A DNA stretch of 64,000 nt from Candidatus Woesearchaeota archaeon (GTDB lineage Archaea; Nanobdellota; Nanobdellia; Woesearchaeales; GW2011-AR9): assembly GCA_018655525.1 (NCBI GenBank), contig JABIJM010000008.1, positions 20,836 through 84,835 of the forward strand. The letters are read 5' to 3'. Position 1 is the stretch's first letter; each line of letters begins with the position of its first letter. Under the pieces are notes generated by a model, which had not been told where the DNA came from, did no database searches, and saw only the letters and a program-made list of their open reading frames with translations. Below are positions 6,578 through 36,133 of the stretch, one piece after another. The translations under genes were made by a program, and so were the position numbers.

Positions 6578-6908
6578 GTAGTGGTAGCAGAAAGCGTAGG
6601 GTTTTGAACCCAGGAAAGTCCGCCCATTGAGTATCATGGTTACCTTTGAAAGAAGGGTGGGGAAATCCCACAGCTCTGGATTAGAAACGACACGTCCTAT
6701 AAAATTGGAATGATTGGAAGTCCTAATGGCGAAATTATTTGAGAAAATAATGAGTTAACTCCTTGACGTCTTTATAGGGAACGATGAAACGGCGAATCTT
6801 AACCAATGCAAGTCAGTTTGACGCTTAGTAGAATGCTTTCATGGATCATCGCAATCTTTTAAGGTTGTTTGGGTCCAACAAAAGGTGGCTTATGCTGCCC
6901 TACCAACT
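6578..6908 (+). ncRNA. rnpB: RNase P RNA (archaeal type)
   Basis: Conserved P4 5' strand AGGAAAGUCCGCC (6612-6624) and P4 3' strand ACAAAAGGUGGCUUAU (6878-6893). The GGUGG/CCGCC pairing is compensatory. A terminal helix pairs UGGUAGCAG at 6582-6590 with CUGCC..CUACCA at 6895-6905. No long ORF on the + strand; only antisense ORFs overlap it. Confidence 0.6.
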
Positions 6909-24773: not shown

Positions 24774-25292
24774 ATGGATATGAATTATTTTAAAACAATT
24801 AAAGAAGCTCTTCAAACAGTATATTATTCTAAGAAGTATTATGCCATTTCTCTTATTGCAGGAATCATTATTTTTTCACTGAATGCAGTTATTAGAAATT
24901 ATAAATTATTATTAGATCAATTTTCGTTTACGTTGTTATATCATTTAGTATTAGGAACATTTACATCATTCGCAACAAGTATGTGGATTTCGCTTCTATT
25001 CGTTGCAGTCCTTACAGGAATCATTGTATCCTTCACGGTATTCTTAATCGGACGTCAGATTAGTTCTTCTGGTGTTTCTACTAGTATCTCTAGTATCTTA
25101 ATTGCAATTGTTGCACCTGCATGTCCATCTTGTGCTGTGGGGTTATTTGGAATTGTTGGTTTAGGCGGAGTTATGGCGTATCTTCCATTTAGAGGTGAAG
25201 AATTAGGTCCTTTGGCTGTATTATTGATTGCAGTTTCTTTAGGATATCTTTCTAAGAAGGTTGTTACAAATACGTGTGAGATTAAACGTTAA
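24774..25292 (+). CDS. Membrane protein with a Cys-containing TM segment (ACPSCAVG)
   Basis: 172 aa, 4 predicted TM helices. Confidence 0.4.
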   Translation: MDMNYFKTIKEALQTVYYSKKYYAISLIAGIIIFSLNAVIRNYKLLLDQFSFTLLYHLVLGTFTSFATSMWISLLFVAVLTGIIVSFTVFLIGRQISSSGVSTSISSILIAIVAPACPSCAVGLFGIVGLGGVMAYLPFRGEELGPLAVLLIAVSLGYLSKKVVTNTCEIKR

Positions 25293-26020: not shown

Positions 26021-26365
26021 TCAACCCTTAAACCCAGATTTCTCTGCAAGTTGTTGCGTTGTAAAGACACCAGTTACTTTTGTTCCATCTGCAAATTGCC
26101 ATGTTGGATAAGAAGTGATTCCTTCTTGAATACAGGTTGGTGTTTGGGCCTTTCCATCAGGAGTAGAACATTCTACATAATTGATTTTCTTAAAACTTTT
26201 TCCGAGAATTGCTTTTTGTTGGTTGCACGCAGAGCACCAAAATGCACCGTACATCAATACACCTTCTTTTGTAAGGTGTTCAGCAAGAGCATCATTCTTT
26301 CCCGTACATCCTGATAATACAAGTAAAGAGATGATTCCAATAATTAATAGTATTTTTTTCATCAT
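26021..26365 (-). CDS. Thioredoxin-like lipoprotein (extracytoplasmic thiol:disulfide oxidoreductase)
   Basis: Lipobox LSGCTG. YGAFWCSAC CxxC motif and SYPTW motif, as in VKOR-associated Trx-like domains. Confidence 0.6.
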   Translation of the reverse strand: MMKKILLIIGIISLLVLSGCTGKNDALAEHLTKEGVLMYGAFWCSACNQQKAILGKSFKKINYVECSTPDGKAQTPTCIQEGITSYPTWQFADGTKVTGVFTTQQLAEKSGFKG

Positions 26366-26376
26366 AGTATTTTCCT

Positions 26377-28554
26377 CTATAACTTTTTTCTTTTTAATAA
26401 TAGTGAATTTGTAATCACACTTACGCTACTTGCAGCCATTGCGCCGCCTGCTAGCATAGGATTTAGTAACCATCCGGTCCATACATATAAAACTCCTGCA
26501 GCAACAGGAATGCCTAAAGTATTGTAGAACAATGCCCAAAACATGTTTTGTCTAATTTTAGCCATCGTCAATTTACTTAATTTTATTGCTTTTGGAACGT
26601 CTAATAAGCTGTCTTTCATTAAAACAATGTCTCCTGTTTCCATTGCGACATCTGTACCTGAACCCATGGCAATACCTATGTCTGCTTGTGCTAATGCTGG
26701 TGCGTCATTGATCCCATCGCCAACCATTGCTACTTTACCTTTTTGTTGTAGTTTTTTAACGTAATTTGCTTTATCTTCTGGAAGAACTTCTGCAAACACA
26801 TTCTTTATTCCTGCTTTTTTTGCGATGGCATGTGCTGTTCGTTCATTGTCGCCGGTGATCATATATGTTTCAATGTCAAGTTCTTGTAGCATCTTAATTG
26901 CGGTAGGAGAATCTGCTTTAATCTCATCTGCAACTGCAATTATTCCTAAAAGACTCGTTCCTTGTGAAAGAACCATGGTTGTTTTTCCTTCTTGCTCTAA
27001 TGAAGTTATTTTAGAGTTAAGAGGAGTTAAGTCTACATTCTTTTCTTTCATTAATTTGGGATTTCCTAAATAATATTTTTTACTTCCAATCTTTGCTTCT
27101 ACGCCTTTTCCGACAATTGCTTTGAATCCCGTAATGTTTTTCCAGGAAACTTTTTTAGATTTTGCTTCTTCCACAATTGCTTCTGCAAGAGGATGTTCGG
27201 AATTCTTTTCGATACTTCCAGCAATTTGTAATACGTCTGATTCTTTGATTCCTTTTGCAACTACGACATCAGTTACTTCGGGTTTTCCTTTTGTAATTGT
27301 TCCAGTTTTATCGAATATAACATATTTTAATTTATGAGCTGTTTCTAATGCATCTCCACCTTTAATTAAAATTCCTTGTTTCGCTCCTAACCCTGTTCCT
27401 ACCATGATGGCAGTTGGTGTTGCTAGTCCTAAAGCACACGGACATGCAATGACAAGAACTGCAACTGCAGCAATTAATGCAAATCCTACAGCTGCACCTA
27501 CAACAAGGTTCCAAATAAGGAAAGTTGCTACGGCTATTAAAATTACAATTGGCACAAAATAGGAAGAGATTTGATCTGCAAACCTTTGAATTGGCGCTTT
27601 CTTTGTTTGTGCTTCTTCAATGAGTTTTACAATACGTGAAAGGGTTGTTTCTGATCCTACATGTGTTGCTTTGAATGTGAAACTTCCGGTTTTGTTTATA
27701 GTTGATCCGATTACATTATCTCCTTTCTTTTTTTCTGTAGGGATACTTTCACCTGTGACCATACTTTCATCAATCGCAGAATGGCCTTTTACAATCATCC
27801 CATCAACAGGAATTTTTTCGCCTGGTTTTACAATTACAAGATCTCCTTTGACAACAGTATCAATAGGAATTTTGATTTCTTTTCCATCTCTAATAACAAG
27901 TGCTGTTTTTGCACCCAATTTCATGAGTTTACTAATTGCTTCTGACGTTTTGCCTTTTGCAATCGCTTCAAGATATTTTCCTAGAATTACAAGCGTGATT
28001 AATACAGCAGATGCTTCAAAATATTGGTGGCCTTGTGCTCCAAGTAAAACAACATACACAGAATAAAAATACGCTGCACTTGTACCCATTGCAATTAATG
28101 TATCCATATTAGAAGTTTTATTCTTTAATGCTGCCCAAGCACCTACATAGAATTGTTTTCCCACATAGAACTGAATTGGTGTTGCTAAAGCCCACATGAT
28201 ATAATCTTGAAATGGAATAGGGTTTTTCATGAAAAACATGCCTAAAATAAGAGAAGGGATTGCAAGAATTGCACTAAAGAGGACTTTATTTTTGAGATTA
28301 TTCAATTCTTTTTTACTTTTTTCTTTTTCCTGTGCTAGGTCTTTTACAAAGTGACCTTCATAACCTTTATCTTTAATAATTTGTAATAATCCTTCTTCTG
28401 AAATGTTCTTTGAATTGAAATCAATTGCTGCTTTTTCTGTTGCAAAATTAACTGTAGCTTGTGAAACTGCTTCATGTTTCTCCAAAGCTTTTGAGATAAT
28501 TTTGGTACAACTAGCACAATGCATGCCGGTTATTTTAATTGTTGTTTTCGCCAT
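26377..28554 (-). CDS. copA: Copper-translocating P1B-type ATPase
   Basis: N-terminal HMA domain (GMHCASC), TM CPC motif (ACPCALG), DKTGTIT phosphorylation site, GDGINDAP hinge. Confidence 0.85.
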
Positions 28555-28564
28555 ATTTATTTCC

Positions 28565-28951
28565 TCATTTTGAATTTTTCACCATCTTGGAACATTCTTT
28601 GCATCCTGTTTTATGTTCAAATGCATCTCTTAGGATACACCAACAGAAATTTGGTGATAATTGGAAGTATTTTTCCCTTCCTTTTTTTTCTGAATTTACA
28701 ATCCCTAAGGAATGTAATAATTTTAATTGGTGAGATATTGCAGATAAGGTTACATTATCCACGCTTTTGTGAATCTGAGTTACGTTTTTTGGGCCGTCCA
28801 TGATGCTTACCAGCATCTTTAACCTCGTTTCATCTGCTAAACTTGAAAATAAATGTAATGCTTTATTATAATCTCTCTTCACGATAGTTGAATAGTTGCT
28901 CAAGTATTTAAATGTATTGGTGATTTTTAATAATTTTGAGCTGCGACCCAA
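28565..28951 (-). CDS. ArsR/SmtB-family metalloregulatory transcription factor
   Basis: wHTH ([17 protein letters not shown]) with a C-terminal Cys cluster (CWC...C..C). The upstream gene overlaps its 5' end by 25 nt. Confidence 0.65.
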
Positions 28952-29256
28952 CGATCCATTAATATTAACATAGTATCTTCCAATAAAGTGATTCTTGCCT
29001 CATAAGTTCCTTTTGGAGTAATGCCAAATGAAGATTCCATCAGTTCTATTTTTTTTATTGTATCTTTAATTTCTTGATCCGGAAACCATTTTGGATCCAT
29101 TCCAATTTCCAATAATTGGGAATCTGAAGATAAGGCTTTCATTTGTAAAGTATGTGCATAAAGGAGATTTACTCTAAAACTTGTATCTTCATCAATGTTA
29201 TTTGAAGAACATGCTGTAAACATTAATAAAATAAAAATAAAAAATACTTTTTTCAT
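28927..29256 (-). CDS. Lipoprotein of unknown function
   Basis: Lipobox FTACSS. 109 aa. Confidence 0.4.
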   Translation of the reverse strand: MKKVFFIFILLMFTACSSNNIDEDTSFRVNLLYAHTLQMKALSSDSQLLEIGMDPKWFPDQEIKDTIKKIELMESSFGITPKGTYEARITLLEDTMLILMDRWVAAQNY

Positions 29257-29262
29257 TTTAAA

Positions 29263-30687
29263 TTACTGAGGGCCACCACAACCACAACCACCACTTGCAC
29301 CACAACTGCTTGCAGGTGGTAGATCAATTGCATTTAAAGCGCCAGTAATTTCATTTTGGTCAACAGTATCTTGAACAATAAATGCCCCTGGAATCATACC
29401 CATCCAACAACTCCATGAGATTGTACCGGTTTCAGTTGGCGTAAATTCAATGGTTTGAGTCCCTGGTTTGATTGGAAAGTTTAACCCATATTTAGGCACA
29501 CTAATAGCATTATTACATCCATTAATTTCTTTTCCTTCAATAACCCATTTTACTGGAATGCCTTTTTGTAGTACAAATTTATCTGGACTCCACCCGTACC
29601 TATTAACTTCCATATTTATGATTTGGTAGCCGTCTTTCAGCTCAATAGCATTTCCTGAATTTGAGTTACTATCTCCAAGAACGTTAAATCCCGCGGTTAA
29701 TGAATTGTAATCATATCCTGTTCCAGTTAATGTAAGACCGCGATTCACCATAATTAATCCTAAAAAGATTACAATGATTGCAGATGCTTTCAAAATTTTA
29801 TGTGTTGCTTTCCCACTTAAAAAACTTGTAAGGTAACCAAAGCCAAGTAATACAGGCAAAGTTCCTAAGCCAAAAATGAAAAGGAGTTTAGCTCCTTCAA
29901 ACATGCTTCCAGTTCCTGCTGCCATAATATAAATGGCTTGCAATGGTCCGCATGCAATCATTAATCCATTAAGTAATCCTATTACTAATGGGCTGTTTTT
30001 ATGAGCTCGTGCTTCTTTACTTGTAAAACGATTGATAAATTTCGGAAATCTAAATCGTATTTTTCTAAGTGCAGGAAAAATATTTAACATTTTTAGTCCG
30101 AATAATACAAGGAATGCTCCCGCAATAATTCCTGCGAGACCACGCATCATTGGTGTAAATGCAAAGATGCTTCCAACCAATCCAAAAAGCGCACCAATTA
30201 TTGTATATGAAAGCGTTTTTCCAATTGCATACGATAAATGGAGATAATGTGGTTTCTTTCCTTCTTTTGCACCTTTCGTGGTGTAAGATACAACAAATCC
30301 ACCACACATACTAATACAATGGAATCCGGTCAATAATCCTACTACAAAGAGAAGTCCGTAACCCATGTTTTGACTAATCGTTGGAAGGTTGATTGAATCA
30401 ACATATTGTAAAATGAAATATCCTAGGACAAGAATTCCAATAATTGCAAATGTCCACCCAACATAAGATTTTTTGTTTGAAGAAGTATCACAAATATATC
30501 CTTTTTTCTCAATGATATTTTTGATTTTTGCAAAACTTGTTTTCTCTTCATCAAAATCTACGGTTGATTTCTCAGTTGTGTAATCAACATGGAAGGAATT
30601 GATTCCTTGCAATTTATGAACTTGACGAGAGATGATTTTCTCACAACTTTCGCAAGTCATGCCTTTTGTAGTGAAGGTTTTTTTCAT
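29263..30687 (-). CDS. HMA domain – DsbD-like multi-TM – cupredoxin-like domain fusion protein (putative heavy-metal handling)
   Basis: N-terminal HMA (GMTCESC). TM core with paired Cys (HCISMCGG, ACGPLQ). C-terminal soluble beta domain with SWSCWMGM and a terminal CGASGGCGCGG. Confidence 0.55.
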   Translation of the reverse strand: MKKTFTTKGMTCESCEKIISRQVHKLQGINSFHVDYTTEKSTVDFDEEKTSFAKIKNIIEKKGYICDTSSNKKSYVGWTFAIIGILVLGYFILQYVDSINLPTISQNMGYGLLFVVGLLTGFHCISMCGGFVVSYTTKGAKEGKKPHYLHLSYAIGKTLSYTIIGALFGLVGSIFAFTPMMRGLAGIIAGAFLVLFGLKMLNIFPALRKIRFRFPKFINRFTSKEARAHKNSPLVIGLLNGLMIACGPLQAIYIMAAGTGSMFEGAKLLFIFGLGTLPVLLGFGYLTSFLSGKATHKILKASAIIVIFLGLIMVNRGLTLTGTGYDYNSLTAGFNVLGDSNSNSGNAIELKDGYQIINMEVNRYGWSPDKFVLQKGIPVKWVIEGKEINGCNNAISVPKYGLNFPIKPGTQTIEFTPTETGTISWSCWMGMIPGAFIVQDTVDQNEITGALNAIDLPPASSCGASGGCGCGGPQ

Positions 30688-30902
30688 TCTACTTGATAAT
30701 CTCCTTCTGCTTTAATCGTTTCTTTAATTTTTTCCAAAGATGTTTTGGATTCATCAAATTCTACTTCAGCTGTACCTAAATCATAATTAACATCTACCTT
30801 TACGTTAATATCTTCTAATGCATCTTCAAGAAGCATTTTGCAACTTTTGCAATGCATCCCTTTAATTTTTAATGTTTGTTTCATCTTATCCCTCTTACGC
30901 AA
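30684..30902 (-). CDS. copZ: Copper chaperone CopZ (HMA domain)
   Basis: 72 aa with the GMHCKSC metal-binding motif. Confidence 0.7.
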   Translation of the reverse strand: MRKRDKMKQTLKIKGMHCKSCKMLLEDALEDINVKVDVNYDLGTAEVEFDESKTSLEKIKETIKAEGDYQVE

Positions 30903-31323
30903 ATCTATGCGCGCCTGCTGTTAACTCTGCTTTTTTAATGATAACATTTTTGTTATCTAAGGTGTGGCTCAAATATGATGGCCAACATCCATATCCTTTA
31001 TTTTTTGTCCCGAGTCCATCAATACTAAAAACTCGGCCACAATTATTACATTTAATATCATCTCCTTGTTGCATATAACCTTTAGATCCTCCACAAACAT
31101 CACAAGCATCAAATGCCGTTCTTATTGATCCGTCGGTTCCTTTTACTACAAAATAGGTTACAGTAGTACCAGAAGTATCATAATCAAATTTCTGAACTTT
31201 ATCTGTGATACCATTTAATGGTATTTTAAATGATTTGTCATCTTCAGAGATTTGGATGTCTCCTGAAGAACATCCTGCAATTAATAATGTAAGTAAAATC
31301 ATTCCAATAATATATTTTTTCAT
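30895..31323 (-). CDS. Cys-rich lipoprotein (putative metal-binding, C..C..C..C zinc-ribbon-like)
   Basis: Lipobox IAGCSS. FDACDVCGGS...CNNCGRVF. Confidence 0.45.
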   Translation of the reverse strand: MKKYIIGMILLTLLIAGCSSGDIQISEDDKSFKIPLNGITDKVQKFDYDTSGTTVTYFVVKGTDGSIRTAFDACDVCGGSKGYMQQGDDIKCNNCGRVFSIDGLGTKNKGYGCWPSYLSHTLDNKNVIIKKAELTAGAHRFA

Positions 31324-31389
31324 ATTTCATGCCTCCTGATGAAGAAATAGTGGGTGAAACGCTTTATAAAAGAAGATGTGAAACTAGTT

Positions 31390-31857
31390 TCACTTTAGAA
31401 TAATAATGTTGGTCATGCCACGCCTTTTACGTTCAATAAGCCCTTTTCCTTCTAATTTATCTAAAACCCTGGACACTTTTACTTTACTTTGTTTTGTTTC
31501 TTTAATAAGATCACTTTGGTACACCGAACCATTTTCTCTAAGTACAATATTCATGATTATTCTTTCTGCTTCATCCAAGTTTTCTAAATTTGGTTGGTTA
31601 GAGAGTTTAGGTTTCTCTAAATTTTTTGACCCATCTTTAAGGAAAAAGGAAACTACGCCTCCAAGAACTACTAAAAGAGCAACTAACCCATAACTAATTT
31701 GTTTCTGAGTATCTAATGTTACTTGCATTGGGCAAGATACGCCATGTGTACAAGACATGCTCACAATTGTTTCTAATGCATTGTTAAAAGACATAACTAG
31801 GAAGAAGATAAGTACAGCGATTCCGATTACAAGGAATCCTACATGTTTATTTTTCAT
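31390..31857 (-). CDS. Membrane-anchored winged-HTH transcription regulator with a Cys pair in the extracytoplasmic segment
   Basis: TM helix at the N-terminus. CTHGVSCP. Second TM helix. C-terminal MarR-like wHTH (VSRVLDKLEGKGLIERKRRG). Confidence 0.5.
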   Translation of the reverse strand: MKNKHVGFLVIGIAVLIFFLVMSFNNALETIVSMSCTHGVSCPMQVTLDTQKQISYGLVALLVVLGGVVSFFLKDGSKNLEKPKLSNQPNLENLDEAERIIMNIVLRENGSVYQSDLIKETKQSKVKVSRVLDKLEGKGLIERKRRGMTNIIILK

Positions 31858-32875
31858 TGTGGTTGTGAATGTTTTTTCGCATTCTTTTGAGATATATTTC
31901 TAATTTCTTTTTAATATCTTCCTTTAATTTTGATTCAAAAGATAATTTTTCAATTCCATGATTCCAATCTATTTCTGGAATCCGAGTAAGTGAACCTACA
32001 AAATTTCTATTTGCAAGAGTTGCTTGATTTTCAATTCCTTGCGCTATCTCTGTTCCAAATAATTTTAATGCTTTAAATTTTGAAATGGAATTTGAACCTG
32101 CTTTTAATAATAAAGGAATTCTTTCTAAACGGTCCTCCCAGATTCCACATTGGATATCTAATGTAGGAAATTCTATTCGTAATTTTGCAATCCACCAAGC
32201 TTGTTGTTCTTCGCTTGGAATTTCTGCATTTTCAAAAGGTGTGCCTTTTTGTGGGATTAAACCATAAACATGAATTTTATGGATATCATATGTTGTAATA
32301 AACTCAGCTAATAAAGAAAAATCGGATTTTACTTCACCCATTCCTACAATAAAAGTCATTGCTCGTTGTAAATCAAATTCTTTAGAATTTTCAAACATCA
32401 TTTCATATGGTTTCAAAGGTTTAGAAGGACAAACTTGTTTATGTAAAATAGGATTTATTGTTTCTGTTGAACCAACAACACCTTTAATGTATGGTAAATA
32501 TCGTTGTAATAATAATTTAGATATTGGCCCTATTGAAAGCCAAATTTTTTCATTTGTGATTTCATAAATTGATTTTAAAAGAGATTCTAATTCGTCTGGT
32601 TTCAATGCACCAATGCCACCTGTAAAGAACCCTATGTCCCATCCAAGATGTTTACATAGAATAAATTCTGCTAAGATAGATGAGTTACTTCGTTTTGTTT
32701 CTTGGACTACTTTTTCTAAAGGTTGTGTGCTCATGTAACAAAATGTACAATCTCCAATCATGCATCCCCAACTAAAGAATACTGCTCGTTCAAAGGTTAC
32801 AGAGTTGTTGAAATTTTCTGTATAAATCTTTTGAGCTTGTTCTATTAGTTGTGGTGTTTCACTGAAATCTTCCAT
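31847..32875 (-). CDS. Radical SAM-like enzyme (non-canonical Cx4Cx2C cluster motif)
   Basis: FFSWGCMIGDCTFCYM near the N-terminus, followed by a TIM-barrel-like pattern. Confidence 0.45.
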   Translation of the reverse strand: MEDFSETPQLIEQAQKIYTENFNNSVTFERAVFFSWGCMIGDCTFCYMSTQPLEKVVQETKRSNSSILAEFILCKHLGWDIGFFTGGIGALKPDELESLLKSIYEITNEKIWLSIGPISKLLLQRYLPYIKGVVGSTETINPILHKQVCPSKPLKPYEMMFENSKEFDLQRAMTFIVGMGEVKSDFSLLAEFITTYDIHKIHVYGLIPQKGTPFENAEIPSEEQQAWWIAKLRIEFPTLDIQCGIWEDRLERIPLLLKAGSNSISKFKALKLFGTEIAQGIENQATLANRNFVGSLTRIPEIDWNHGIEKLSFESKLKEDIKKKLEIYLKRMRKNIHNHNEK

Positions 32876-35644: not shown

Positions 35645-36133
35645 TTATTCTACAATAATCTTTCCTTTCATACTGCCATGGCCTTCGCCACAAAATACAT
35701 TGCAAGAAAATGTATGAGTTCCAAGGGTATTCGCTACGAATTCTACGGTTTTTGTTTCACCTGGATTGAATTTAACATCAACATCAAATTCCTTTAATGA
35801 AATGCCGTGTGTAACATCTTCACTTGTAATTGTTAATTTAACGTTATCTCCTTTCTTTACTTTGATTTCTGAAGGGATAAATTCCCATTTCTTTGCAACC
35901 ATTGAAATTTCAACTACATTATAGTCCTCCGGCGGAATTAAAGGTTCTTCCATTTCATTTACTTCTTCTACAACCGTTTCTTTAGTATCTTCGTTTCCTT
36001 CTGTTGGCATTTCCGTTGTTGTGGGCTCTTCTGGCATTTCATAATCTGGAAAAGATGTTTCTTGACAACCTGAAATAACAAAAGAAAGAACCATAATAAT
36101 TCCAATTAAAATTACATTTATTTTTTTCATCAT
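35645..36133 (-). CDS. CuA-type cupredoxin lipoprotein (cytochrome oxidase subunit II-like domain)
   Basis: Lipobox ISGCQ. CuA ligand pattern H...C.VFCGEGH..M (VTHGISL ... FSCNVFCGEGHGSMKG). Confidence 0.6.
   Translation of the reverse strand: MMKKINVILIGIIMVLSFVISGCQETSFPDYEMPEEPTTTEMPTEGNEDTKETVVEEVNEMEEPLIPPEDYNVVEISMVAKKWEFIPSEIKVKKGDNVKLTITSEDVTHGISLKEFDVDVKFNPGETKTVEFVANTLGTHTFSCNVFCGEGHGSMKGKIIVE

Follow-up and report, generated by a model that had tools for sequence, protein, structure and literature searches.

A copper-homeostasis operon of a Woesearchaeota archaeon with a conserved HMA/DsbD_2/CupA-like fusion protein and a predicted membrane-tethered regulator

What does the cluster of minus-strand genes at positions 26021-31857 of this stretch of Candidatus Woesearchaeota DNA do, and was it inherited or acquired? 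The stretch, 64,000 nucleotides (nt) of contig JABIJM010000008.1 and referred to here as the window, has a GC content of about 32% and is archaeal, as established by the archaeal RNase P RNA that it contains (6578-6903, plus strand; Rfam RF00373, 141.7 bits). A reading of the sequence alone had described the cluster as a copper or heavy-metal island with an unusual fusion protein and a membrane-anchored regulator. The analysis reported here finds an ordinary copper-homeostasis (cop) operon for its lineage, with two uncharacterised, widely conserved components: a membrane protein in which an HMA domain, a DsbD_2 core and a CupA-like domain are fused, and a membrane-tethered winged-helix regulator. 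The model developed for the whole, in which the fusion protein would relay Cu(I) without ATP and the regulator would act as a copper-responsive repressor, was given an even chance of being correct.

The cluster consists of eight minus-strand open reading frames (ORFs), numbered g1 to g8 by increasing coordinate and transcribed in the order g8, g7, g6, g5, g4, g3, g2, g1, with the operon-like packing of gaps of 6-66 nt or overlaps. All ORFs listed in the sequence-only reading were located at their coordinates and on the minus strand, but where that reading counted nine co-directional genes only eight lie within 26021-31857; a ninth co-directional gene, a radical S-adenosylmethionine (radical-SAM) gene at 31847-32875, falls outside this range. 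The assignment to copper homeostasis held up, with CopA carrying P1B-1 Cu(I) signatures, CopZ and an ArsR/SmtB regulator all present. The fusion gene, g5, has the following parts.

29263-30687, minus strand: g5, 474 amino acids (aa), HMA domain, seven-transmembrane (7-TM) DsbD_2 core, CupA-like cupredoxin domain and Cys/Gly tail
30496-30678, minus strand: g5 domain 1, predicted cytoplasmic HMA domain, aa 4-64, with invariant C12-x-x-C15 (Pfam HMA, 55.9 bits)
29728-30465, minus strand: g5 domain 2, one extra TM helix and a six-TM DsbD_2 core, aa 75-320 (from Pfam, AlphaFold helices, and hydropathy and charge)
29362-29649, minus strand: g5 domain 3, predicted extracytoplasmic CupA-type cupredoxin domain, aa 347-442, with C391 and C427-x-M429-x-M431
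29266-29310, minus strand: g5 tail, disordered Cys/Gly-rich C-terminus SCGASGGCGCGGPQ (AlphaFold confidence, pLDDT, <50)

The fold of the HMA domain matches the CopZ structures 6FF2 and 2QIF with a TM-score of 0.94. The core was assigned by Pfam to DsbD_2 (PF13386, 163 bits, aa 113-311) and to DsbD_TM (PF02683, 37.7 bits, cut-off 27.1), and a weak NCBIfam match to the ArsG-family permease (24 bits) spans the whole of it. Domain scanning had been expected to return HMA, DsbD_2 and Cupredoxin_1; the first two were recovered by Pfam, and Cupredoxin_1 stayed below threshold (19.2 bits against a gathering score of 27). The C-terminal end had been given as CGASGGCGCGG, of which the Cys/Gly-rich character stands and the exact ending was corrected to that listed above. 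The core carries the ligand set H123-C124-x-x-M127-C128-G-G in TM2, H150, and C246-G-P at a helix break in TM5. The Cys residues within TM helices are C124 and C128 (TM2, core helix 1) and C246 (TM5, core helix 4), giving one Cys-bearing helix per half of the core as in DsbD/CcdA, and the additional invariant Cys, His and Met are atypical. Searches of the core against PDB sequences by phmmer and by profile returned no match at E ≤10, and the core Cys residues were not alignable to CcdA/DsbD. The structure search with the full-length model was dominated by the soluble domains and was uninformative for the TM core.

Seven TM segments were found by hydropathy, with Lys plus Arg counts of 14, 0, 5, 1, 9, 0 and 1 in the successive loops before the C-terminal domain, and all seven recur as helices in the full-length AlphaFold model, in which TM5 is interrupted at A245-C246-G247-P248. 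An N-in/C-out orientation was assigned because the loop charges obey the positive-inside rule. LysM domains bind peptidoglycan. An HMA-DsbD_2-Cupredoxin_1 homologue in Methylocystis parvus and Methylocapsa acidiphila terminates in a LysM domain, and the C-terminal domain of these homologues was placed outside the membrane because LysM must reach peptidoglycan. A topology with the HMA domain inside and the CupA-like domain outside is supported as a prediction by hydropathy, charge bias, the LysM homologues and the lipoprotein signals of the partner proteins. This agrees with the sequence-only reading, which had put the two domains on opposite sides of the membrane and had named their location on one side, with no Cys in the TM helices, as evidence that would refute it.

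The C-terminal part of g5, modelled with AlphaFold from 26 homologues, has an all-beta core forming an eight-stranded cupredoxin-like barrel (pLDDT about 90). Its best PDB match in Foldseek was Streptococcus pneumoniae CupA (4F2E; E 7.9e-11, TM-score (target) 0.90, 32% identity), with the CupA-like metal-binding domain of pneumococcal CopA (4F2F) also among the top matches; both CupA types outranked Bacillus anthracis Cupredoxin_1, CuA domains, nitrous-oxide reductase and nitrosocyanin. A profile of the domain searched against PDB sequences with hmmsearch found CupA at E 2.6e-17 (66 bits) and 4F2F at E 1.6e-9. The cupredoxin fold proposed earlier is thus borne out by structure prediction, fold search and profile search. 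In the profile alignment C391 corresponds to the first CupA Cys (C74) and C427-W-M429-G-M431 to the C-G-M-N-M of CupA (C111, M113, M115). CupA binds Cu(I) at two sites, S1 (Cys/Cys) and S2 (Cys/Met/Met) (PMC5646241, PMC7558416). Its CupA fold and ligands mark domain 3 as a predicted chaperone module that binds Cu(I) through thiolate and thioether groups. The domain lacks the usual His ligands and matches CupA best, not plastocyanin or azurin, and for these reasons a blue-copper or electron-transfer site was rejected; the redox-type copper site suggested from the sequence was not established, and in its place stands a CupA-type Cu(I) thiolate/thioether site that lacks His ligands.

The CupA C74/C111 pair also reduces Cu(II) to Cu(I) in vitro, with the re-reductant unidentified (PMC5646241), and this raises a different function for g5. 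In a thiol or electron relay the DsbD_2 core would move reducing equivalents outward and re-reduce the CupA-like Cys pair and the tail, making the outer part a cupric reductase or a reduced Cu(I) trap, and so would meet the need for a re-reductant. The DsbD_TM score above cut-off and the Cys-bearing helix in each core half, as in CcdA/DsbD, fit such a function, as do the VKOR, DsbA-like and Trx-like genes in the clusters of relatives and the VKOR-partner type of thioredoxin encoded by g1. However, the fused soluble domains are metal-chaperone folds and none is a thioredoxin fold, the invariant His123 and Met127 and the third core Cys are unneeded for dithiol/disulfide exchange, and family variants with three HMA domains suit metal handling and not electron donation. 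There is no detectable similarity of the core to solved CcdA/DsbD structures, even by profile, and VKOR/Trx pairs are oxidising systems, not acceptors of reductant. A thiol relay is the main competitor of the Cu(I) relay and has to be taken seriously, but it was given the lower probability of the two and considered rather unlikely. The "thiol-relay" core of the sequence-only reading was not established, as a metal relay better suits the invariant His and Met near the Cys residues and the presence, on either side of the membrane, of chaperone-type instead of thioredoxin-type domains.

The fusion had also been called unusual, and its distribution reverses that description, since the architecture is standard in Woesearchaeota and other DPANN archaea and is also found in methanotrophs. 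More than 5,227 proteins match g5 with the same architecture (E ≤1e-5). The best 120 of these, with about 96% query coverage and 53-70% identity, are all from Woesearchaeota/Nanoarchaeota and bear the database names "sulfite exporter TauE/SafE family protein" or "heavy metal transporter". Relatives occur in at least 566 species-representative genomes, and the 80 best-matching of these belong mainly to DPANN (Woese-, Nano-, Aenigm-, Micr-, Undin- and Altiarchaeota). The non-DPANN genomes among the best 80, with 46-59% identity over full length, are those of Ca. Methanoperedens and of bacteria, namely Methylocystis, Methylocapsa, Methylocella, Methylotetracoccus, Methylothermaceae, Methylohalobius, one deltaproteobacterium and one metagenome-assembled genome (MAG) of a Chloroflexia. 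An ancient inter-domain transfer of the fusion gene is likely, given the archaeal/proteobacterial identity of about 50%.

In 54 DPANN and seven more distant sequences, bacterial ones included, the residues C12/C15, H123/C124/M127/C128-G-G, H150, C246-G-P, C391 and C427/M429/M431 are invariant. The tail residues C462, C468 and C470 are conserved within DPANN only, and the alphaproteobacterial proteins have LysM instead. Variants of the family include one with three N-terminal HMA domains (P0097) and one with two CupA-like domains (P0030). At 50% identity the CupA-like domain family falls into 3,241 clusters (1,641 at E ≤1e-10), and many of its representatives hold two or three tandem copies; some proteins are only about 120-330 aa long and seem to consist of a single CupA-like domain or of tandem copies. 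According to a review, CupA is limited to a few streptococcal species (PMC7558416). Literature searches on COG2836, on methanotroph HMA/cupredoxin/LysM proteins and on DUF2318 with cupredoxin found no functional study; a paper on the CsoR meta-regulon was alone relevant.

Gene neighbourhoods were counted by tblastn of the window proteins against 85 fetched related loci (E ≤1e-5, coverage ≥50%), and the counts are lower bounds. The fusion gene is accompanied by copA in 64 of the 85 loci, by copZ in 52 (upstream of the fusion gene), by the TM-winged-helix gene in 35 and by the FtrD-like gene in 24; DsbA-like (16), Trx-like (12), VKOR (9) and ArsR (8) genes are less frequent, and g4 was found in none. 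The cop genes are nearly always co-directional, with the fusion gene flanked by copZ and copA.

Outside DPANN, the closest full-length homologues concentrate in methane oxidisers of three unrelated lineages, the alphaproteobacteria, the gammaproteobacteria and Ca. Methanoperedens (loci L055-L057, L064, L066, L067, L072, L077, L079, L081, L082; L036, L054). In Methylocapsa acidiphila the fusion gene adjoins a CusA/CusB-like pair of the resistance-nodulation-division type.

The methane oxidisers bear on a second alternative, copper import or supply, in which the outer CupA-like domain would capture and perhaps reduce copper and deliver it to HMA/CopZ, or would feed extracytoplasmic clients such as a CuA-type lipoprotein encoded 4 kb away. 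The closest bacterial homologues cluster in copper-demanding alpha- and gammaproteobacterial methane oxidisers, with further homologues in Ca. Methanoperedens; the alphaproteobacterial fusion genes are unlinked to copA, and the window itself encodes a cupredoxin lipoprotein with a CuA motif (35645-36133). The copper-demand argument is weakened by Methylocella, which is not known to have the copper enzyme pMMO. In DPANN and gammaproteobacteria, moreover, the fusion gene stands between copZ and copA under one promoter, and an importer co-induced with an exporter would be futile. CsoR derepresses its targets at high copper, which also counts against import. HMA-DsbD_2 genes belong to the CsoR regulon in Firmicutes (PMC4938975). 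Import or supply was judged improbable, and an outward Cu(I) relay was retained as the preferred function of g5.

The second conserved component is encoded by the first gene of the operon, and a candidate control site lies directly behind it.

31390-31857, minus strand: g8, membrane-tethered one-component regulator, two N-terminal TM helices and a C-terminal winged helix
31354-31393, minus strand: candidate operator/promoter ahead of g7 (from reading of the sequence)

The TM helices of g8 span about aa 6-31 and 54-72 and the winged helix aa 95-154 (Pfam DUF7343, 44.7 bits; MarR_2, 31.5 bits). The protein has 936 homologues and is identical to one annotated in the Ca. Woesearchaeota MAG GCA_018650605.1; no paper on DUF7343 was found in a literature search. 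The loop of 22 residues between the helices contains C36-x-H38-G39-x-x-C42-P43-M44, which is invariant in 41 aligned homologues, and the motif CxxxxC reported earlier is in fact C36-x5-C42 (SCTHGVSCPM). The loop was placed on the outer side because the N-terminus (MKNKH) and the linker after the second helix are basic and the winged helix must reach DNA. The gene heads the cluster in 35 of the 85 loci. The sequence-only reading had suggested that g8 could sense metal or redox state on the far side of the membrane, and this role is plausible in view of the invariant outer loop and of a conserved operator found together with the gene; copper is the probable signal.

In the candidate operator the palindrome GTGAAAC-TA-GTTTCAC (31393-31378) overlaps the g8 stop codon and is followed, eight nt on, by the TATA-like TTTATAAA (31370-31363) and then by a third half-site, GTTTCAC (31360-31354). 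Downstream of this lie GGAGG (31336-31332) and the g7 ATG (31323). At ≤2 mismatches the site is unique in the window and occurs exactly once in 27 of the 85 loci, compared with a total of 1-7 matches per shuffled set. In each of these 27 loci it precedes the first cop gene, in most cases by 35-250 bp, and in many loci it starts 3-30 bp past the stop codon of the winged-helix gene. The consensus anchored on the palindrome is TGAAACTAGTTTCAc-N8-cTTATAAg-N2-tGTTTCA, with the core TGAAAC-N2-GTTTCA. The operator tracks the winged-helix gene, being present in 23 of the 35 loci with the gene and in 4 of the 50 without it (Fisher p = 2.8e-8). ArsR was rejected as the protein binding the palindrome, as it shows no association with the operator (p = 0.70). 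The flanking of the TATA box by half-sites suggests the geometry of an archaeal repressor. A scan for sigma-70 promoters and terminators gave fewer sites than shuffled sequence and was disregarded, as such a scan is not meaningful for an archaeon.

In the model to which an even chance was given, CopZ or the fused HMA domain would hand Cu(I) on, by exchange of ligands, to a thiolate/imidazole/thioether site in the membrane core, and from there it would move to the outer CupA-like site and the Cys-rich tail. On the outer side it could be buffered or passed on to the Cys4 FtrD-like lipoprotein, g7, and the net direction under copper stress would be outward, parallel to CopA. The VKOR-type Trx lipoprotein, g1, would service exposed thiols and disulfides. 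The regulator g8 would occupy the operator as a repressor, and Cu(I) binding or Cu-driven oxidation at its outer loop would cause release of the operator or a change in oligomeric state. It is therefore proposed that, through sensing by the outer loop, the operon answers to copper outside the cytoplasm; the cytoplasmic ArsR protein, g3, may provide a second, internal input in this lineage. A metal relay is supported by modular variants with three tandem HMA domains or two to three tandem CupA-like domains, which are metal-transporter-like. Related ArsG-family proteins are efflux permeases for thiophilic organoarsenicals (PMC9144182), and HMA-DsbD_2 and DUF2318 proteins are members of a copper-responsive CsoR regulon in gut Firmicutes (PMC4938975).

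A number of points weigh against this model. The fusion family is uncharacterised, and Cu(I) transport and its direction are suggested by sequence features; the topology of g5 is drawn from hydropathy, charge bias and LysM, and AlphaFold confidence in the TM core is only 55-75. The DsbD_TM score above threshold, together with the VKOR, DsbA-like and Trx-like genes of relatives, fits a thiol or electron relay equally. The occurrence in methane oxidisers may indicate that copper is acquired and not detoxified, and the alphaproteobacterial copies end in LysM and do not adjoin copA. Binding of the candidate operator by the winged helix is suggested by co-occurrence and position, and 12 of the 35 loci with the winged-helix gene are without a site at ≤2 mismatches. 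A reading that joins all parts, and that goes further than the model, was held only tentatively and is on balance doubtful. On that reading the HMA/DsbD_2/CupA-like family would form a novel class of Cu(I) translocases that work without ATP and bear a chaperone domain on either side of the membrane, common to DPANN and three unrelated lineages of methane oxidisers. In DPANN it would stand under the first archaeal membrane-tethered transcription factor to sense extracytoplasmic metal, which would detect metal with its C-x-H-G-x-x-C-P-M loop and directly occlude the TATA box.

The remaining genes of the operon are as follows.

30684-30902, minus strand: g6, CopZ-type HMA copper chaperone with MxCxxC (Pfam HMA, 48.6 bits; NCBIfam CopZ models)
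26377-28554, minus strand: g2, CopA, P1B-1 Cu(I)-exporting ATPase with an N-terminal HMA domain (TIGR01511, 665 bits, cut-off 397)
30895-31323, minus strand: g7, FtrD-like (DUF2318) lipoprotein, lipobox IAGC (PF10080, 93.1 bits, cut-off 26.3)
28565-28951, minus strand: g3, ArsR/SmtB metalloregulator (NF033788, 56.8 bits, cut-off 55; Pfam HTH_5)
26021-26365, minus strand: g1, lipoprotein, homologue of the VKOR thioredoxin-like partner domain, lipobox LSGC (phmmer, 3KP8/3KP9)
28927-29256, minus strand: g4, 109-aa putative lipoprotein, ORFan, outside the conserved cluster

The translation of g2 contains CPC (C371-P-C373) in TM6, N-x6-YN-x4-P in TM7 and M-x2-SS-x5-N in TM8. In public gene calls g6 begins at a 66-aa start (30684-30884) and g3 at a 105-aa start (28565-28882); g6 overlaps the start of g5 by 4 nt. 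The C-terminal Cys cluster of g3, CxC...CxxC, consists of C103, C105, C117 and C120. Lipoprotein-type signals are present in g1, g4 and g7. The description of g7 as a Cys-rich lipoprotein was kept and refined to FtrD-like/DUF2318, with a signal or TM segment at aa 5-23 and a CxxC...CxxC arrangement formed by C74, C77, C92 and C95. Similarly, g1 is the Trx-like lipoprotein described before, and can now be assigned to the VKOR-partner type by its match to 3KP8 (E 1.2e-19), in which its active site WCSAC aligns with WCPHC. No VKOR or DsbA homologue that could pair with g1 was found in the 64-kb window. In several Woesearchaeota (L001, L004-L008, L020, L035, L063) a VKOR gene lies between copZ and the fusion gene, and a DsbA-like gene between the FtrD-like gene and copZ. 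Disulfide-forming enzymes inside cop operons link copper handling to extracytoplasmic thiol chemistry, a connection unexplored in archaea. The protein g4 gave no Pfam, NCBIfam or PDB match, and among 5.8 billion proteins only itself and one 83% relative were found. It overlaps the long ArsR ORF by 25 nt, an overlap that the later public ArsR start abolishes, and as an ORFan absent from all 85 related loci it was set aside as a functional partner.

Three neighbouring genes were also noted. The radical-SAM gene (31847-32875, minus strand) is PRK06267-like but below cut-off (273 bits against 305), overlaps the g8 start codon by 11 nt and was linked to the cop cluster in none of the 85 related loci. 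At 24774-25292 (plus strand) a multi-TM protein of 172 aa with APACPSC in a predicted TM helix belongs to no Pfam or NCBIfam family; its gene lies next to a MarC-family gene, also in the two other contigs of the organism. Given that g1 is without a VKOR partner, this protein could be a membrane thiol oxidoreductase. The lipoprotein at 35645-36133 (minus strand, 162 aa) matches Pfam Cupredoxin_1 and, weakly, COX2, and has a motif of the CuA type, H...C-x3-C-G-x2-H-x2-M. In this organism, for which oxygen respiration is not expected, it may represent a copper protein located outside the cytoplasm and thereby a possible client for the cop genes.

The question of origin was decided by composition and gene order. 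The cluster and the rest of the window have GC contents of 0.339 and 0.325 (p = 0.13) and GC contents at third codon positions (GC3) of 0.248 and 0.213 (p = 0.08), and the codon-usage distance between them gave p = 0.45. In the relatives L001 and L004 the cluster is flanked by RNase J-PCNA and by CTP-transferase-Asn synthase/diphthamide synthase, and the same core genes bracket the cluster here, at a greater distance and around a cluster in inverted orientation. Recent acquisition of the region as an island for heavy-metal resistance, perhaps directed at another metal (Hg, Ag or Cd), would account for the flanking genes that vary between relatives, for the lack of a radical-SAM or MarC match in the 85 loci, and for the weak NCBIfam MerP/MerTP matches of the HMA domains; the 46-53% identity between archaeal and bacterial homologues also suggests that the gene passed between the domains at some time. 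GC, GC3 and codon usage, in which the cluster does not stand out from its surroundings in the window, speak against such an island, however, as does the bracketing of the cluster by RNase J-PCNA and CTP-transferase-Asn synthase in several Woesearchaeota. No integrase, tRNA or repeat boundary was seen, the search for tRNA genes having found none in the window. A different metal is disfavoured by the full Cu(I)/Ag(I) P1B-1 signature of CopA, by the CupA Cu(I) ligands kept in the outer domain and by the absence of merA and merB. An acquired island was regarded as very improbable. The island and horizontal acquisition of the sequence-only reading were given up on these grounds, with GC and codon usage as in the rest of the window, the copZ-fusion-copA order kept in most of the 85 loci and the same flanking core genes recurring in relatives, conserved synteny being what that reading had itself named as evidence against an island. 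The region is a lineage-typical, vertically inherited cop operon of Woesearchaeota (DPANN).

Copper handling in archaea, and in DPANN especially, is almost unstudied, and the ways in which copper crosses the prokaryotic cytoplasmic membrane other than by P-type ATPases are poorly understood. The fusion represents a very abundant uncharacterised membrane family, present also in copper-dependent methanotrophs, whose ligands and domains on two faces suggest a Cu(I) relay. It also brings the CupA fold, held to be a streptococcal curiosity, into a widespread group of proteins that are predicted to use it outside the cell. The DUF7343 regulator, with its candidate sensor loop and candidate operator, could serve as a model for extracytoplasmic metal sensing in archaea that does not involve a two-component system. 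The basic picture of the cop operon is unchanged, and the finding is instructive and not revolutionary.

Among known systems, CupA and the metal-binding domain of CopA (PDB 4F2E, 2MRY, 4F2F) share with g5 domain 3 the fold and every ligand of the binuclear Cu(I) site. CupA, however, is small, is anchored in the membrane by a single N-terminal TM helix and operates in the cytoplasm, where it supplies the CupA-like domain of CopA. The g5 domain follows seven TM helices, has a predicted outward orientation and bears a Cys/Gly tail, and the metal-binding domain of the local CopA is of the ordinary HMA type. The core of g5 belongs to the same membrane superfamily as DsbD, CcdA and ScsB, with two three-helix halves and a Cys-bearing helix in each, and ScsB is also tied to copper tolerance. 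It differs from these proteins in having H-C-x-x-M-C and C-G-P in place of one Cys per half, and in having metal-chaperone domains on both faces and no fused thioredoxin fold.

The COG2836 "heavy metal transport/detoxification" proteins of the copper-responsive Firmicutes CsoR regulon likewise combine HMA and DsbD_2, with or without DUF2318, and are linked to DUF2318/FtrD-like proteins and copA (PMC4938975). DUF2318 rather than a CupA-like domain is described for them, and cytoplasmic CsoR controls their genes. In the present operon DUF2318 forms a lipoprotein of its own and the candidate regulator is a membrane-tethered winged-helix protein; no CsoR gene was found in the cop cluster by Pfam scan, and the conserved operator that tracks the winged-helix gene is a different one. 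In the mercury-uptake relays MerT/MerP and MerTP a soft metal crosses the membrane by thiol exchange, moving from an HMA domain along TM Cys residues, as proposed for g5, but the membrane fold is another one, the Mer HMA domain is periplasmic, there is no MerA here, and the similarity is limited to HMA. The iron-uptake system FtrABCD resembles the present system in the co-occurrence of a Cupredoxin_1-type domain with a PF10080 Cys4 domain on the outer face, and FtrB (8VUK) is a structural neighbour of the g5 cupredoxin domain (TM-score 0.80). It differs in that here there is no FTR1 permease or P19, g7 has only the small Cys4 domain without the membrane/ferredoxin part of FtrD, and the g5 cupredoxin domain, unlike FtrB, carries the CupA ligand set.

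For g8, a precedent for a membrane-bound transcription factor in archaea is ArnR/ArnR1 of Sulfolobus acidocaldarius (PMC12107092), and like ArnR/ArnR1 and the bacterial ToxR/CadC regulators it combines a winged-helix DNA-binding domain with TM helices in one polypeptide. ArnR has an N-terminal winged helix, a HAMP-like region and C-terminal TM helices, and regulates motility with no link to metal (PMC12107092). In g8, by contrast, the TM helices come first, followed by a C-terminal winged helix of the DUF7343 family, with a C-H-C-M loop, no HAMP region and the cop promoter as its candidate target.

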